From: a virus | IMG/VR virus record: IMGVR_UViG_3300037467_001303 | Location: 32,001-96,000 of that record | DNA length: 64,000 nt | Direction: 5' to 3' (one strand) | Shown: positions 2,679 to 32,094 of the stretch, piece by piece | Numbering within the stretch: position 1 is the stretch's first letter | How the letters are laid out: each line of letters begins with the position of its first letter | The notes under the pieces: generated by a model | Database searches by the model: none | What the model was told of the DNA's origin: nothing | What the model saw: only the letters and a program-made list of their open reading frames with translations | Made by a program: the position numbers and the translations under genes

Positions 2679-3221
2679 TCAGGCATGCTCGCGGTAGGCC
2701 CGCAACACCCGCTCCATGCCCGGCCTGCACTCCCTGAACTCGGGACAGATGCCGTTGCGGTACACGCACTCGGGCACCATGAAGCGCGCCAGGTCGGCGT
2801 CGACCTCCAGCATTTCCTTGCGCACGCGGCGCCAGGTGGCGACCGTCTTGCCGGACGCGTTGTAGCACAGGCGCTTGCGGCTCATGGTGATGATGGCCTG
2901 GGCGTTGAGCAGCATGCCGTGGTTGACCGGGGTGTTGCGGTTGACGACATCGTCGCCCGCCCCGCCCCGGTCGTCGCGCATGCTCTGCACGAAGTGCTCG
3001 ACGCCCTGCTTGTGGCGCACCAGGTGGACCGACACGAAGGTCGGGATCGCCGCCAGCTCGATCCAGAACATGCGCGCGCGGATCGGGCTGTGCTCGGTGC
3101 GATACCAGGCCTTCAAAGGCGCCTTCACCGGCTGGCCATGGGTCGTCATCTGGGCCGCGCGCTGCACCAGGGCCAGGTCGGTGACGGGCGTGATGGTGAT
3201 GGTGCGGCGCGTGCTCATCAA
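2679..3221 (-). CDS. thyX: FAD-dependent thymidylate synthase ThyX-like
   Basis: EHSP, HLVRHK...QSMR (variant of RHRx7SxR), KRLC..A, and C-terminal VPECVYRNGICPE. Confidence 0.75.
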   Translation of the reverse strand: MMSTRRTITITPVTDLALVQRAAQMTTHGQPVKAPLKAWYRTEHSPIRARMFWIELAAIPTFVSVHLVRHKQGVEHFVQSMRDDRGGAGDDVVNRNTPVNHGMLLNAQAIITMSRKRLCYNASGKTVATWRRVRKEMLEVDADLARFMVPECVYRNGICPEFRECRPGMERVLRAYREHA

Positions 3222-3484
3222 TTGCCCAGCTCGGTGCCGTCCGGTTCCACCAGGTACAGCTTCGCGCGCAGCTCGTCGAGCGACAGGCCGGTGAAGTCGT
3301 GCGCGGCGATCAGGAAGGCCGGGCCGACCGGCACGCGGAAGTGGCGGAACTTCGAGAGCACCGGCGGCGGCACGCCCATGGTGCGCGACAGCTGGGCGTC
3401 GTTCTTGAGCTTCAGGTGCTCGTGCAGGAAATCCAGGAATCCGTTCGGGTCCTGCGGGCGCGGCGGGTTGATGCGTTTCGGCAT
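3218..3484 (-). CDS. XRE-like HTH protein
   Basis: LKNDAQLSRTMGVPPPVLSKFRH helix-turn-helix pattern. Confidence 0.7.
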   Translation of the reverse strand: MPKRINPPRPQDPNGFLDFLHEHLKLKNDAQLSRTMGVPPPVLSKFRHFRVPVGPAFLIAAHDFTGLSLDELRAKLYLVEPDGTELGN

Positions 3485-21945: not shown

Positions 21946-21966
21946 AAAAGCCGCCCGCAGGCGGCT
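21944..21966 (-). terminator. Terminator ending antisense island 1
   Basis: GCCGCC stem with U6 on the minus strand. Confidence 0.75.
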
Positions 21967-21985
21967 CGAACGGAACTGTGCCGGC

Positions 21986-22897: not shown

Positions 22898-23350
22898 TTA
22901 GTGAAGGTGGTTGCGAAGGACGGGCTGCTGCTTGACAAGGGACGGCTCGAACCCGGAATCCCATGGCCATCGCCGATTCTTGTCAGGCCACACTAGTTGT
23001 AGCGCGGTGTAGTCGGGGAAACGGTGCAGGACGGCATACATGTACTGGTCGGCTTCGCTGCGCGGCGCCGGTACAAGGCGCGCGGGGAAGCCCTCGGCCA
23101 CGTCGTCCAGGTCGGTATCGAGCGCCGGTACGCCGCTGTTCGTGAAGCGCCTGCCCATGTCGTTCAGGAACCTGTGCGCGATCTCCATCGGCAGGCCGAA
23201 CATGATGATCTCTGGATAGCCCTTCGCGCTCAGGCCGACCGTGTACGAGAATGGCGGGCTGTTATCACTGCCGAACACACCCTGTACGGCCCATCCGTAC
23301 TTGGCGATCATGGCGTCGAATTCGGCTTCGACGGCTTTGCGGTCTTTCAT
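22898..23350 (-). CDS. DUF4262 domain protein
   Basis: I..YGWAVQGV...PFSYTVGL...PEIIMFGL...LQLVWPD..RWPWD. Confidence 0.8.
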   Translation of the reverse strand: MKDRKAVEAEFDAMIAKYGWAVQGVFGSDNSPPFSYTVGLSAKGYPEIIMFGLPMEIAHRFLNDMGRRFTNSGVPALDTDLDDVAEGFPARLVPAPRSEADQYMYAVLHRFPDYTALQLVWPDKNRRWPWDSGFEPSLVKQQPVLRNHLH

Positions 23351-23371: not shown

Positions 23372-23395
23372 AAAAAAGGCAGGCCGAAGCCTGCC
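23372..23395 (-). terminator. Intrinsic terminator
   Basis: GGCAGGC-UUCG-GCCUGCC-U6 on the minus strand. Confidence 0.8.
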
Positions 23396-23399
23396 GGGG

Positions 23400-23576
23400 T
23401 TACTGTTTCGGTTTCGTTCCCTGTTCGGCCTTGTACGCCTTGTACAGGGGCGAACGGTAGATGGTGGACAGGGCGATCCCGACCTGCCTGGCGGCAGCGT
23501 AGGCCGACAGCGTGCCGCCACTCGCGCGCAGCAGGGCGACGGCCTTGGCGACTTCGGCGGACGGACGGCCGCTCAT
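23400..23576 (-). CDS. 58-aa HTH protein, Aca-like position
   Basis: Hand translation MSGRPSAEVAKAVALLRASGGTLSAYAAARQVGIALSTIYRSPLYK...; AAGGAG RBS; not in the ORF track. Confidence 0.75.
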   Translation of the reverse strand: MSGRPSAEVAKAVALLRASGGTLSAYAAARQVGIALSTIYRSPLYKAYKAEQGTKPKQ

Positions 23577-24128: not shown

Positions 24129-24545
24129 TCAGGCTCCGTCGTTGGCGGCAGCGGGCGCCATGATGGCGTCGGCGGTCTTGTCCAGCGCAGCACGCATGCG
24201 GCGCGCGAGGTCCTTGTCGTCGCGCACGCGGAAGAACGATTCGACGAGGTCGATCAGAATCTCCATCGCGTGCGCGTCATTGGGCAGCCCGTTGTACTCG
24301 ATGATGCTGTCGCCCAGCCAGTCGCCGAATTCCAGACTGACTTCGTACTCGAACACGCCGGGATAGTCTTCGCGCACGGCCTCGGCAGCCTCGCGCAGCG
24401 CATCAATGCGCGGCACCCATTCCATGGCGGCATCGACCAGCTCGATCATGCCTTGGTCGTACGCCTTGTAGACCTTGTCCAGGTCGGCCCTGTACAGGCC
24501 CTGCATCACGAATGCCGCCGTGATTGCGGTCTGACGCTGATCCAT
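24129..24545 (-). CDS. Hypothetical acidic protein
   Basis: AAGGAG RBS, preceded by leader repeat A. Confidence 0.7.
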   Translation of the reverse strand: MDQRQTAITAAFVMQGLYRADLDKVYKAYDQGMIELVDAAMEWVPRIDALREAAEAVREDYPGVFEYEVSLEFGDWLGDSIIEYNGLPNDAHAMEILIDLVESFFRVRDDKDLARRMRAALDKTADAIMAPAAANDGA

Positions 24546-24551
24546 TGCTAT

Positions 24552-24613
24552 CTCCTTGGGTTGCCGGGACAATTCCCGCACCAGCGCCCGCACATGGCAG
24601 GCGCTGATACTGG
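24552..24613 (-). repeat. Two-hairpin leader repeat, copy A
   Basis: CCAGTATCAGCGCC-loop-GGCGCTGGTGCGGG-AATTG-TCCCG...AAGGAG. Confidence 0.75.
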
Positions 24614-24618
24614 CGCTG

Positions 24619-24867
24619 TCACTTGGGACGGGTTTCGTCCTTGTACATGCCGCGCGCCTTGGCCAGGGCCGCATCGAAGTCGATGCCGAGCCGGTCGCAC
24701 CAGTGCATGAGATCGGCCAGCAGGTCGCCGAGCACGGTGGCGTTATCCTCTCCGGCCCGCACCATGCCGGTCGCATGCGCGAAGGTCATCACGCCCTGCG
24801 CGGCCCATCCGGCGCGCTGCTCGTTCATCCCGTCCGGGTCGGGCGGCAGGTTGGAGATCGTGTTCAT
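24619..24867 (-). CDS. Hypothetical protein
   Basis: PPDPDGMN..RA.WA...DLLADLMHWCDR. Confidence 0.7.
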   Translation of the reverse strand: MNTISNLPPDPDGMNEQRAGWAAQGVMTFAHATGMVRAGEDNATVLGDLLADLMHWCDRLGIDFDAALAKARGMYKDETRPK

Positions 24868-25295
24868 TGCCCGTCCTCCGGTTCGTACTCGATGTCGAAG
24901 CCGGCTTGACGGTTCGACACCCACATCCACGCCATCACATAGGCGCCGTCATCGTCGCCCTTCGAGACGACTGCGGGATTGTCCACCTCGATCTCACCGT
25001 CCTTGGCCATGCGCTGCGCTGCGGCCACGTAAGGGCTGTGCTGGGCCAGCTCGGCGAACATCGGCACGATGGCCGAGAAGTCCAGGCCGTGGTGGTTCAG
25101 GCTATCGCACAGCTCGCTGATGTCGTCGCCCTCCAGCGGTTGCAGCGTGCCGCAGTTGCTGGCAATGTCGTTGATGCCTGCTGGCAGATCGCCGAACGCG
25201 TCCAGATTCGACTGGTAGAAGCGCAGCGCGGCCAGCACGGTCGCGTGGGCTTCCTGGGTCAGCGCGTACAGCGCGGGTTTCTTGGTGTCGGACAT
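24864..25295 (-). CDS. Hypothetical acidic protein
   Basis: DGEIEVD..AVVS..DD.GAYVMAWMWV. Confidence 0.7.
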   Translation of the reverse strand: MSDTKKPALYALTQEAHATVLAALRFYQSNLDAFGDLPAGINDIASNCGTLQPLEGDDISELCDSLNHHGLDFSAIVPMFAELAQHSPYVAAAQRMAKDGEIEVDNPAVVSKGDDDGAYVMAWMWVSNRQAGFDIEYEPEDGQ

Positions 25296-25297
25296 GG

Positions 25298-25750
25298 TCA
25301 GGCTCCTTTCGTGGTGTCAAGTGAAGGGCAGTCGGCAGGCGCGGCAACGCTCCAGCCCCGCGCACGCATGATGCGGCCGACGATGTACAGGGTGTAGTGC
25401 GGCACGTCGCGGTCGGCGATCCCGATCACGGCGCCACACTCCGGGCAGCAGCCGGCCGGGGCAAGTTCCCCAGGTAGCACGCGGTCGTGAATGTGGTGGA
25501 TGTGGTGAATCCCGTTGATCTCGCTCATGGTGCCGGTCCAGTCGCACTCCTCGCACGCGTAGGTGGTCGGCGTGCCCGGCTTCTGCTTCGGCGCGGCCGG
25601 CGGCAGCGGTTCGACCAGGTGCCGGAACAGACCGTACAGCACGTTGTAGTCGTCGCCGGTCGGCGCACGTTCCTCGGCGCTCAGCCTCGCGTCGTAGTCT
25701 TGCATGGCCTTCACCAGCCGCTCCAGCGGGTCCTGCGGTGTCGTTGTCAT
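25298..25750 (-). CDS. Hypothetical zinc-finger protein
   Basis: CEEC...RV.PGE..PAG.CPECG. Confidence 0.7.
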   Translation of the reverse strand: MTTTPQDPLERLVKAMQDYDARLSAEERAPTGDDYNVLYGLFRHLVEPLPPAAPKQKPGTPTTYACEECDWTGTMSEINGIHHIHHIHDRVLPGELAPAGCCPECGAVIGIADRDVPHYTLYIVGRIMRARGWSVAAPADCPSLDTTKGA

Positions 25751-25756
25751 GGCATC

Positions 25757-25813
25757 CTCCTGTGATCGGGACTATTCCCGCGTCAGCGCCCCCTCTGGAG
25801 ACGCTGACACTGG
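25757..25813 (-). repeat. Two-hairpin leader repeat, copy B
   Basis: CCAGTGTCAGCGTC-loop-GGCGCTGACGCGGG-AATAG-TCCCG...AGGAGG. Confidence 0.75.
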
Positions 25814-25814
25814 C

Positions 25815-26090
25815 CTAGTCTTCGTAGCGTGTCAGTCCGGGGACCGTGTCGCCGTCGCTGTCAAAGCGCAGCAGCGCGATGCCCAGGCGTTGTGCGTAGC
25901 GCATGACGCCCGCCAGATCGTCGGGCAGGCTGGAAAGACTCTGTTCCATCACGTCCGGCACCGTCACGAAAAAGCCGTTCGGATAGGCGCCGATGCTCAT
26001 GGCGGGCCAATTGTTGTCGCCGCGTTGCATCTTGTCCATGGTGCGCTGTGTCAGGTAGCCTGTAGACAGGTCCAGGTAGGTATAGAGCAT
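25815..26090 (-). CDS. DUF5983-like protein
   Basis: LDLSTGYL...GFFV...LP.DL..V..YA...G...LRFDSDG...GL..Y. Confidence 0.65.
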   Translation of the reverse strand: MLYTYLDLSTGYLTQRTMDKMQRGDNNWPAMSIGAYPNGFFVTVPDVMEQSLSSLPDDLAGVMRYAQRLGIALLRFDSDGDTVPGLTRYED

Positions 26091-26099
26091 GGCGTTCTC

Positions 26100-26474
26100 C
26101 TAGAGTCGGGTTGCCACGCGGGCGTTGGCGCGCAGGATCGTCCAGTGCTCGATCTCGTTGTCGCAGTAGCGGATGTATGCCGCTTCGCGCTGCGCCTCGT
26201 CACTGCCGAACACGGCGAAATCGCGCTCGCTCGGGCCGGTCTGGAGCGCAGCGGCTGTTTCGCAATGGTCGTCCACGAACGCAATCAGGCCGTCCCACAC
26301 GACGCTGTAGTGAGCGTATGGCACGTCCTCGTTAAGGGCGATCTCCAGCAGGTTGCCGTTCAGGGTCCAGGTGCTGTATTCCTCGGGCTGGACCAGTTCG
26401 GCCAGCGCCTCGATAGCGGCCTCATGGCCGGGTTTGATGCGCAGCTCGCCGCGCAGGAACAGATTGGTGCTCAC
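26100..26474 (-). CDS. Hypothetical acidic protein
   Basis: AGGAGG RBS and GTG start, preceded by repeat C. Confidence 0.65.
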   Translation of the reverse strand: MSTNLFLRGELRIKPGHEAAIEALAELVQPEEYSTWTLNGNLLEIALNEDVPYAHYSVVWDGLIAFVDDHCETAAALQTGPSERDFAVFGSDEAQREAAYIRYCDNEIEHWTILRANARVATRL

Positions 26475-26479
26475 AGTGC

Positions 26480-26544
26480 CTCCTATAGGTGGTTGCCGGG
26501 GACTGCCCCCGCGTCAGCGCCCGTTGTCCAGGCGCTGACACTGG
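26480..26544 (-). repeat. Two-hairpin leader repeat, copy C
   Basis: CCAGTGTCAGCGCC-loop-GGCGCTGACGCGGGG-GCAGT-CCCCG...AGGAGG. Confidence 0.75.
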
Positions 26545-26545
26545 A

Positions 26546-26932
26546 TCAGTCGTCAGCCTGCTCGATCTGCGCCTCGACCCACTGCCAGTAACCGCGCAGG
26601 GTGTCGCCCTCGGCCACTTCGTGCCGCCAGTCGCGGCGCAGGTACTGCGGATGCTCGCCGTTGTCGCGCTCGGTGCTGTACTTCTCCTGTAGCTCGTCGG
26701 CGGCCAGCAGGCGGTCGGAGCGCGCCAGCTCGGGCCGGTAGGGCATGCCGTCCGGCGCGCCTTTCTTGATGTTGAAGTCCCACTCGGACACGGTCGCGTC
26801 CGTCATGGCCGTCAGGATGTCGTGTTGCCCGATGTGGTGCGCGGCGGATTCCAGGTTGTGGCCAAGCTGCGCCGCGTCGGATTCGTCCGCGTCGAAGGTG
26901 AAGTTCAGGATCAGGCGTCGTTTGATGAGCAT
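26546..26932 (-). CDS. Hypothetical protein
   Basis: GEHP.Y...DW..EV....T..GYW.WV; GGAGG RBS. Confidence 0.7.
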   Translation of the reverse strand: MLIKRRLILNFTFDADESDAAQLGHNLESAAHHIGQHDILTAMTDATVSEWDFNIKKGAPDGMPYRPELARSDRLLAADELQEKYSTERDNGEHPQYLRRDWRHEVAEGDTLRGYWQWVEAQIEQADD

Positions 26933-26945
26933 GGTCGCCTCCGTC

Positions 26946-27452
26946 TCACAGCAGGCCACATTCGGCCATCGAGCACGATGCGGCCGCGGTGACGATGATG
27001 TGGTCAAGCACGCGCACGTCGATCAGGGCCAGCGCCTGCGACAGCTGGTTGGTCAGCACCTTGTCGGCCTCGCTCGGTTCGACCTTGCCCGACGGATGAT
27101 TGTGCGCAAGGATCACGTGGGCGGCGTTGTGGTGCAGCGCGGCCTTGACCACTTCGCGCGGGTAGACCCTCGCGCCGGTCAGGTCGCCCCGGAACATTTC
27201 CTCGCGCGCGATCAGGCAGTTCTTGGCGTCCAGGAACAGCACCATGAAGACTTCGTGTTCCAGCTCGCCGGCGTACAGGCGCATGTACTCGCGCACCGCC
27301 GACGGACGGGTCAGCAGCTCGCCGGGCTTGCGCATGCGGTTCGAGAGGATCGACAGGGCGCGGCGGATCGTGGCGTCCTCGCGCTGCCTGCGGGTGTCCG
27401 GGCGCGGTTGAACCGGCTCGGTGTGAAGGGTAACGACGTTCGTGCGGGTCAT
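26946..27452 (-). CDS. radC: RadC/JAB domain protein
   Basis: [28 protein letters not shown] and VLDHIIV motifs. Confidence 0.93.
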
Positions 27453-27501
27453 GACAGGCTCCAGAGTAGGGCGCAGCCACATGGGCCGCGCCGTGGGTTC
27501 A

Positions 27502-27873
27502 TCAGGCAGGTTGGGCGGCTTCGTCTTGCAGGCGGTAGTATTCGCGCGCCTCGGCCAGCACCTTGTCGATCTCCAGCAGTGCCTGCGCATGGGTGTCGCG
27601 GATGGCCTTCTCGGTGCCGCGCTTGCCTTGTGCTACCAGCAGCACGCGCGACAGGTCGCCGCCAGTGCCGCCCAGGTTGAACCGATGCGACCGGAAATGG
27701 CCCTCCCGCTTGTGGCCCGTCACGCATGTCGCCACGCCGACCACACGGCCCCGCTGTGTGTGCTTGCCAGTGCGGAGCACGATCACGCGGCTGTTGCCGA
27801 TGTCGCACTCGGTCTCTGCTTCCCAATCGGCGTGCAGGGTCTTGCCGATCTTGGTCTGGTGCTGCTGTTCCAT
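27502..27873 (-). CDS. Hypothetical protein, first gene of island 1
   Basis: AGGAGG RBS. Confidence 0.7.
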
Positions 27874-27932
27874 GATGCCCTCCTATGGTTGAGTGATTGA
27901 CGGACAGTGCGGGCGCACAAGCCCACGAACAC

Positions 27933-27961
27933 AGTATATAGCATGATGCTACATAAGTACA
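27933..27961 (-). promoter_or_regulatory. Island 1 promoter with overlapping palindromic operator
   Basis: -10 TATACT (27933-38, minus strand); TATATAGCAT-G-ATGCTACATA inverted repeat at 27935-27955; -35 weak. Confidence 0.6.
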
Positions 27962-28007
27962 TGCACGATTGCGCACGGCAATGCGCGCATACCCAGGACA
28001 GAACACC

Positions 28008-31903: not shown

Positions 31904-32094
31904 TCGGATTGGTTCCTCGGCAGGGCGTGGAAGGTGTGGTTGCAGTGCGGGCAGGTGTAGATCACCAGGTTGAAGAACGGCTCGACCTCGACCGCATCGG
32001 GATGGCCCCACTGATAGCGGTCCTTGTCCTCCTTCGGCATCGGGTATTCGGCCGTGCAGTAGCGGCGGTGCAGCGGGATGTACGTGGCCTGCAT
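31900..32094 (-). CDS. Small zinc-finger protein
   Basis: W.HPDA...Y.CPHC.H.F. Confidence 0.55.
   Translation of the reverse strand: MQATYIPLHRRYCTAEYPMPKEDKDRYQWGHPDAVEVEPFFNLVIYTCPHCNHTFHALPRNQSE

Follow-up and report, generated by a model that had tools for sequence, protein, structure and literature searches.

RNase III cuts the early mRNA of phage T7 at irregular intercistronic hairpins (the signals R0.3, R0.5, R1, R1.1 and R1.3), leaving 3' hairpins, and it also cuts such long irregular hairpins in the early messages of the Bacillus phages SP82 and SPO1 (the Bs-RNase III sites); the enzyme needs about two helical turns. The promoter early stem-loops (PeSLs) of T4-type phages each consist of a strong sigma-70-like promoter and a functional terminator (PMC2839356, PMC4122927). 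The start-associated sequences of Cluster K mycobacteriophages (SAS, with an extended form, ESAS) are repeated at a fixed distance 5' of some start codons as a 13-bp box that contains the Shine-Dalgarno (SD) sequence, sometimes with an inverted repeat upstream, and their function is unproven (PMC3203893). Here we describe a structured element that lies three times, on the minus strand, between small genes in a 64,000-nucleotide stretch of viral DNA (positions 32,001 to 96,000 of IMG/VR record IMGVR_UViG_3300037467_001303; "the window" hereafter). With 70 copies, strong covariation and no member in Rfam, the element is a well-supported candidate for a new family of cis-regulatory RNA, unusual in having a stop codon inside a helix and a built-in alternative small hairpin. 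Judged by analogy, it most resembles the T7/SP82 RNase III signals in function and the T4-type PeSLs in evolutionary role.

An earlier note on this DNA, made from the letters alone, had claimed three minus-strand copies of a leader that reads CCAG, stem, CGGG/CCCG, spacer, AGGAG and start codon. All three are present as claimed, with CCAG starting at 24613, 25813 and 26544, and in each the CCAG is followed by a 10-14 bp stem with a variable loop, CGGG-loop-CCCG, a C/A-rich spacer, AGGAG and the start codon. The compensatory and wobble changes that the note had listed among the copies (A-U versus G-C, U-G versus U-A and C-G versus U-G) are likewise there. The copies, delimited by sequence and fold and scored with a covariance model built with the main stem alone (R1), are as follows.

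26475-26551, minus strand: element copy C, a stop-to-start linker (R1 score 72.3 bits); long hairpin 26551-26501, upstream stop TGA 26548-26546 within the basal helix, alternative small hairpin 26511-26497; downstream, SD AGGAGG and then a GTG start at 26474.
25751-25820, minus strand: element copy B, a stop-to-start linker (R1 score 80.1 bits); long hairpin 25820-25770, upstream stop TAG 25817-25815 within the basal helix, alternative small hairpin 25780-25767; downstream, SD GGAGG and then an ATG start at 25750.
24546-24620, minus strand: element copy A, a stop-to-start linker (R1 score 70.3 bits); long hairpin 24620-24568, stop TGA 24621-24619 overlapping the first two bases of the basal helix, alternative small hairpin 24578-24565; downstream, SD AGGAG and then an ATG start at 24545.

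The 13-mer CAGTRTCAGCGYC has exact matches in the window at these three sites only, and a composite pattern run over the whole 104,865-base virus record gave three reverse-strand matches and no forward match, with none for the reversed-pattern control. G+C in the window is 63-76%, and dinucleotide shuffles fold worse than each of the three copies (z = -3.0, -4.2 and -3.2). Stop-to-start linkers at the elements measure 73-80 nt, and genes inside the blocks are spaced -4 to +10 nt apart. The fixed position before start codons is the only feature that the element has in common with SAS/ESAS, which differ in sequence, host group and phage type; here what stands out is a hairpin some 50 nt long that covaries and is linked to the upstream stop.

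The family extends well beyond this record. A strict pattern recovered nine IMG/VR contigs with the same stop-hairpin-SD layout, and R1 finds two to five copies per record, clustered within about 3 kb and on one strand only. A looser pattern combined with R1 brought the total to 70 distinct copies on about 50 IMG/VR contigs of 52-78% G+C; the earlier note had proposed just such a covariance-model search of Rfam and phage genomes. Rfam 15 holds no matching family, the best scores in an 8-kb scan and two 111-nt scans being 7-19 bits against gathering thresholds of 39-110. When cellular genomes were searched, the strict pattern gave three chance matches and the loose pattern at least 120 stretches, with none of the 80 that were scored being genuine. 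The elements are confined to one operon, in a single orientation, and are never found at the operon end, a place taken by U-tract terminators. In many relatives of lower G+C there is just one copy, in a gene context that is conserved. For the loci of relatives, a query with a single protein gave only two, and a query with an alignment succeeded.

The anatomy of the element differs in part from the two consecutive hairpins first described. RNAalifold does return a two-hairpin fold, but covariation and single-sequence energies favour a long hairpin closed over the stop codon. This long fold is a single irregular hairpin of about 23 bp, made up, from base to top, of a 5-bp basal helix over the stop, a 2x2 internal loop, CC:GG, a conserved A-G mismatch and the 10-14 bp main stem. 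The basal helix pairs GAC-N-N, in the upstream stop region, with N-N-GUC, which had been taken for the loop of the second hairpin. In the minimum-energy fold those loop nucleotides are taken up in pairs with the stop-codon region, so the second hairpin is not independent of the first; nor does the structure start a few nucleotides after the stop, as had been claimed, since the basal helix overlaps all three stops (24619-24621, 25815-25817 and 26546-26548). Single-sequence folding gives the long hairpin as the minimum-energy fold of all three window copies, and in 68 of 70 copies the energy is lower with the basal helix forced than with the small hairpin forced, the mean difference being 4.2 kcal/mol.

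Comparative evidence for the main stem is strong. Eight to 10 of its pairs are changed on both sides in an alignment of 23 copies. In a 72-row alignment, 95% of cells are paired and 134 are doubly changed, and none of 500 shuffles reaches the score; sliding the alignment as a control brings pairing down to 33-45%. The basal helix contains a covarying pair of its own (AU 38, UA 8, CG 5, GC 2, UG 3, GU 1, with 13 mismatches), which is 81% paired versus 49% in shuffles, a level reached by none of 5000 shuffles, and which forms without exception (46 of 46) wherever a GAC-TGA stop does not impose T as the 5' base. Mismatches in the main stem cluster at pairs 3-5 (29/70 copies, versus 7/70 for the upper seven pairs). 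The nucleotides at the base (GAC, CCAG, the A-G mismatch, CGGG and GUCCCG) and a central G-C/C-G step are invariant in the 70 copies, and the remaining stem covaries freely.

Variants of the element were also seen. In a divergent subfamily on one contig (L260, IMGVR_UViG_3300027911_000075; copies at 2277-2336, 2892-2951 and 3169-3228), GACAG/UUGUC is absent and the basal helix is rebuilt as UGACCCC:GGGGCCA with no 2x2 loop; there is a tandem mismatch at main-stem pairs 3-4, and one of the copies has lost the small CGGG/CCCG hairpin and kept the stop-hairpin-SD layout. Three further copies (L096:13316-13401, L091:579-664 and L078:6454-6539) have a terminal loop lengthened by an insert of about 20-25 nt, which in L091 and L078 at least forms a hairpin of its own (CCGCA...TGCGG) and contains GGAG, so extra structure can evidently be accommodated at the top of the element.

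Position relative to the flanking genes is as constrained as the fold. The stop codon starts between -5 and +3 from the G of GAC in 69 of 70 copies, with TGAC in 40 copies and GAC-TGA, GAC-TAG or GAC-TAA in 22, and the SD and start codon lie 16-31 nt past the element in 69 of 70 (mode 16-21 nt). Within the helices of the 70 copies, G-U outnumbers A-C by 198 to 12, and the sense strand is 5.7 kcal/mol more stable than the antisense strand, an advantage seen in 63 of 70; it is thus on the sense strand that the structure is selected. Taken with the geometry of stop and SD, this makes the mRNA a likelier carrier of the structure than duplex DNA or the template strand. Among the roles that had been suggested for the element, these same observations favour those at the RNA level (processing or stabilisation, or an effect on translation). 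We consider that the element most likely acts in cis as a structured part of a polycistronic mRNA, that of an accessory, anti-defence-like operon, which we infer to be read as a single transcript.

The DNA-level roles suggested at the outset fare worse. A promoter active as single-stranded DNA was rejected: a consensus scan found no promoter-like hexamers or sites in or beside any copy, and the sense strand, which is the one that folds better, could not template sense transcription. Repetitive extragenic palindromes, miniature inverted-repeat elements and IS200/IS605-type elements were set aside as well (there is no PF01797 in five related records, and the copies lie in one operon in one orientation), and an antiterminator of the put or nut kind was considered and rejected. 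The suggestion of an integron attC-like site, or another hairpin-specific recombination site acting on single-stranded DNA in an integron-like cassette array, draws on real similarities, in that the hairpin begins at the stop of a cassette, has a conserved base, a variable top and mismatches, and separates blocks of one to three promoterless small genes. By contrast with attC, the element ends in GAC(A/U)G ... GUCCCG, the R''/R' cores (RYYYAAC/GTTRRRY) are absent, the better-folding strand is the sense strand, the wrong one for attC, and the tight, fixed SD spacing argues for an mRNA role. Nor was the enzyme found: the tyrosine recombinase family PF00589 is missing from five related records, three of them 100% complete (the control was positive in 14 of 14 genomes), the Y1 HUH transposase family PF01797 is missing from all five, and a serine recombinase is present in only one. 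We regard a site of this kind as very improbable. No tyrosine integrase is encoded in the three complete records (G000, G001 and G009, rated 100%), and direct terminal repeats are present in one record; an integrative lifestyle is improbable for these phages.

A terminator or attenuator that dispenses with a U-tract might be proposed for a stable GC-rich hairpin between genes, as might a mimic of a CRISPR repeat, that is, an RNA anti-CRISPR with Racr as precedent (PMC10651486), since the island looks anti-defence-like and has a terminal gene of helix-turn-helix (HTH) type. The earlier note was right that no U-tract follows any of the three window copies; none follows in any of the 70 copies, and a terminator scan does not call the elements. 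Canonical U-tract terminators are found elsewhere in the same island, and before the SD there is neither room nor signal for a promoter at which transcription might restart. A mimic of one repeat would not be expected to have an upper stem that varies freely, and no CRISPR-DR family in Rfam matches. We give very little credence to either idea.

The second half of the element can fold in another way. The small hairpin CGGG...CCCG is invariant, and it is the one that RNAalifold selects; being invariant, it is neither supported nor refuted by covariation. It shares the nucleotides CGGG/GUCCC with the long fold, so the two are mutually exclusive, and the SD is free of pairing in both. The element is probably two-state, the long form having the better comparative support.

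The reading that we tentatively prefer is modelled on T7: the element would be a site at which a double-strand-specific nuclease cuts and the RNA then refolds, and it would also supply homology for the shuffling of cassettes. Since a search for an RNase III encoded by the phage was negative, the enzyme would have to come from the host. We propose that a host endonuclease of the RNase III type would cut the irregular lower half of the hairpin, in the mismatch-prone part of the 3' arm. The upstream message would retain the strong upper hairpin as a 3' cap, and the freed 3' strand, CGGG-AAUUG-UCCCG, would refold into the small hairpin a few nucleotides before the next SD, as a 5' cap. Much as in the T7 early region, the operon would then yield a set of stable messages, each the size of a block. 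The roughly 60 bp of conserved DNA might also serve, either incidentally or because this second role is itself selected, as a portable homology patch for the exchange, gain and loss of gene blocks. Such a cut-and-refold model would account for both folds, for their shared nucleotides and for the fixed distance to the SD.

Comparison with the T7 signals shows how far the analogy carries. Both comprise several irregular hairpins of about two turns with an internal loop, between the cistrons of one phage operon, without a U-tract and just 5' of the next SD, and in both a 3' hairpin on the upstream message is expected. The element thus has the structure and the intercistronic location of a T7 signal, and its cleavage is a prediction. 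It differs from the T7 signals in having no sequence relation to them, in overlapping the stop codon in nearly every copy, in containing an invariant alternative small hairpin that shares nucleotides with the long one, and in the coincidence of its copies with cassette boundaries.

If the preferred reading is true, widespread uncultured soil phages of about 60-120 kb punctuate their most variable, and probably anti-defence, operon with one portable RNA module, which sets message boundaries and stability and marks the points of cassette exchange. The element would also be a handle for spotting accessory-gene cassettes in phage metagenomes, and its compact arrangement of stop, hairpin and SD offers a natural intercistronic part for synthetic operons.

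Several observations weigh against nuclease processing as the whole explanation. About half of the copies in the GAC-TGA class have a mismatch at one pair of the basal helix. The strong conservation of the base (GAC, CCAG, CGGG, GUCCCG and the central G-C/C-G step) goes beyond what RNase III needs, and may instead reflect recognition by a sequence-specific protein, or the need to keep two folds at once. A processing site would not need to overlap the stop codon so strictly, and the overlap fits a translation-linked role equally well. Enrichment of breakpoints in the elements (see below) is only about twofold over other gene borders, in comparisons that are not independent events. Lastly, the public runs that contain the stretch, DNA runs labelled as soil and rhizosphere metagenomes, include no RNA run.

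Conservation of the base is what a site for a sequence-specific RNA-binding protein of phage or host would lead one to expect, whether as a translational operator, an antiterminator loader or a dedicated endoribonuclease acting at the base of the hairpin, and the base nucleotides are invariant across 70 copies from contigs of 52-78% G+C while other parts of the stem covary freely. However, pairing in two alternative folds could by itself explain this conservation, and no candidate protein co-occurs with the element, the flanking genes being diverse and belonging to families of unknown function or having no match. We consider such a site doubtful.

Overlap with the stop codon invites a different explanation, in which the element is a translational coupler, or two-state ribosome sensor. 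A ribosome terminating in the basal helix would melt the lower half of the hairpin, allowing the small hairpin to form, and the upper stem, still intact, would at its base bring the stop next to the following SD, so that re-initiation or coupling is preserved across a portable linker of 75-85 nt. The geometry suits such a device, since 69 of 70 copies have the stop within -5 to +3 of the helix base, and the SD and start follow at a fixed spacing; so do the two mutually exclusive folds sharing CGGG/GUCCC, and a lower half that is weak by construction, with its internal loop, A-G and U-G pairs and mismatch spot. Coupling also seems usual in this operon, where cassette genes are tightly packed (-4 to +10 nt). 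By contrast, the SD is sequestered in neither fold and every downstream gene has a strong SD of its own. A prediction of the footprint model failed, since the mismatch spot does not depend on the position of the stop codon (9/22 versus 16/41, p = 1), and we know of no established hairpin shunt of this kind in bacteria. We judge coupling unlikely, if not strongly so. A related possibility, which we think improbable, is a bistable, translation-sensing cistron linker, in which the terminating ribosome flips the long hairpin to the small one and the switch, rather than a nuclease cut, sets the re-initiation or stability of the next block; if it were true, anti-defence cassettes could be swapped without re-tuning their expression. 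In a more radical version, an unrecognised hairpin-specific enzyme may move cassettes at the elements.

Whichever role the RNA has, the elements are associated with gene exchange. In the window, the three copies delimit two cassettes.

25815-26474, minus strand: cassette between copies C and B, with a 124-aa open reading frame (ORF) at 26100-26474 and a 91-aa DUF5983 protein at 25815-26090 (from ORFs, Pfam, synteny and blastn breakpoints).
24619-25750, minus strand: cassette between copies B and A, with a 150-aa (Cys-rich), a 143-aa and an 82-aa ORF (from ORFs; PHROGs matches to unknown-function families only), closely spaced (one gap of 2 nt, one overlap of 4 nt).

The position between copies C and B holds unrelated genes in relatives. 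Synteny maps show that one relative (G007) shares with the window phage the layout element, 124-aa gene plus DUF5983 gene, element. Another (G009) reads element, 136-aa gene, element, 148-aa gene, element, and a third (G005) reads element, 148-aa gene, element, so that these two differ by exactly one cassette and one element. A 99.3%-identical segment common to G001 and G004 ends inside an element. Ends of BLAST high-scoring segment pairs are found at 14.7 per kb in elements, 8.0 per kb in other gene junctions and 3.9 per kb inside genes, an enrichment of 1.8-fold over other junctions, and in 14 cases both partners break inside the element. Across elements the upstream neighbour is conserved in 17% of pairs versus 42% elsewhere, and the downstream neighbour in 36% versus 41%; the test lost strength because genes were called crudely and because fused members caused single linkage to join two protein families. 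The earlier note had asked whether genes are gained and lost exactly at the repeats; replacement and insertion exactly between copies are indeed seen, but mosaic breaks are not exclusive to the repeats, and the island is mosaic at ordinary gene borders also. The association of cassette exchange with the elements is real and modest.

In another explanation, the element would be first of all a stretch of DNA homology through which cassettes are shuffled, comparable to the PeSLs of T4-type phages. Selection on the RNA hairpin would then serve only to make a long untranslated linker harmless, by preventing Rho loading and nuclease entry and by holding the stop and start close together. The likeness to PeSLs lies in a short conserved motif repeated between small accessory genes of a hypervariable region, with the boundaries of insertions, deletions and replacements at the motif, consistent with homologous exchange between copies, and these phages set a precedent for such a role (PMC2839356, PMC4122927). 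The differences are that the element has no promoter and no U-tract, and appears to lie inside a single transcription unit, and that no mini-circles or joints were seen. Replacement, insertion and deletion of cassettes exactly between copies, the excess of segment ends in elements and the poorly kept upstream neighbour all accord with a homology linker. However, many relatives have a single copy in conserved context with no apparent shuffling, identical blocks between paralogous copies are only 12-15 bp long, ordinary borders throughout the island are mosaic too, and contigs of four DNA runs, whose cover is fragmentary, contain no joints or mini-circles at the elements. We find exchange as the element's primary function rather unlikely, and keep it as the possible second role in the nuclease-processing model that we prefer.

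The remaining features of the operon and of the island around it are as follows.

27874-27968, no strand assigned: divergent, AT-richer intergenic region between the island and a small-terminase-like gene, with the palindrome TAGCAT-C-ATGCTA (from sequence).
26546-27873, minus strand: conserved operon head, consisting of a 123-aa ORF (27502-27873), RadC/JAB (26946-27452; Pfam RadC, E = 2.3e-43) and a 128-aa ORF (26546-26932) that ends in copy C.
23378-23395, minus strand: canonical intrinsic terminator (7-bp GC stem and T6) after the 58-aa HTH-like gene at 23400-23576, marking the end of the element-bearing operon.
21948-21967, minus strand: second canonical U-tract terminator, at the end of the island.

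Region 27874-27968 is presumably where the operon's promoter lies, to judge by its sequence and position, and a consensus promoter scan called no promoter within it; a terminase-like operon diverges on the other side. Genes of the operon 3' of copy A encode 138-, 105- and 67-aa ORFs and then the 58-aa protein, which has a weak HTH_7 match and is found in 13 related loci. The perfect palindrome in the divergent region and the terminal HTH-like gene together look like an autoregulated anti-defence operon of the acr-aca type. Past the first terminator, a DUF4262 protein (22898-23350; E = 6e-33), conserved in 12 related loci, opens a second small operon. The genes directly after copies B and A (25298-25750 and 24129-24545) fell into one cluster by single linkage, bridged by proteins of 248-254 aa in relatives that apparently carry both domains, and the element is very often 5' of a member of this merged cluster (about 20 loci).

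The large terminase subunit, TerL, is at most 32% identical to that of any cultured phage in INPHARED, so the phage has no experimental relative, and a blastn search of INPHARED with the island gave one irrelevant match of 83 nt. In PLSDB the island matches plasmids at radC alone. The phage radC (JAB; 26946-27452) has about 70% DNA identity to radC of betaproteobacterial conjugative plasmids, whose hosts are Denitratisoma, Diaphorobacter, Alicycliphilus and Acidovorax. This likeness hints at the host group of the phage and at exchange with genes of plasmid leading regions.

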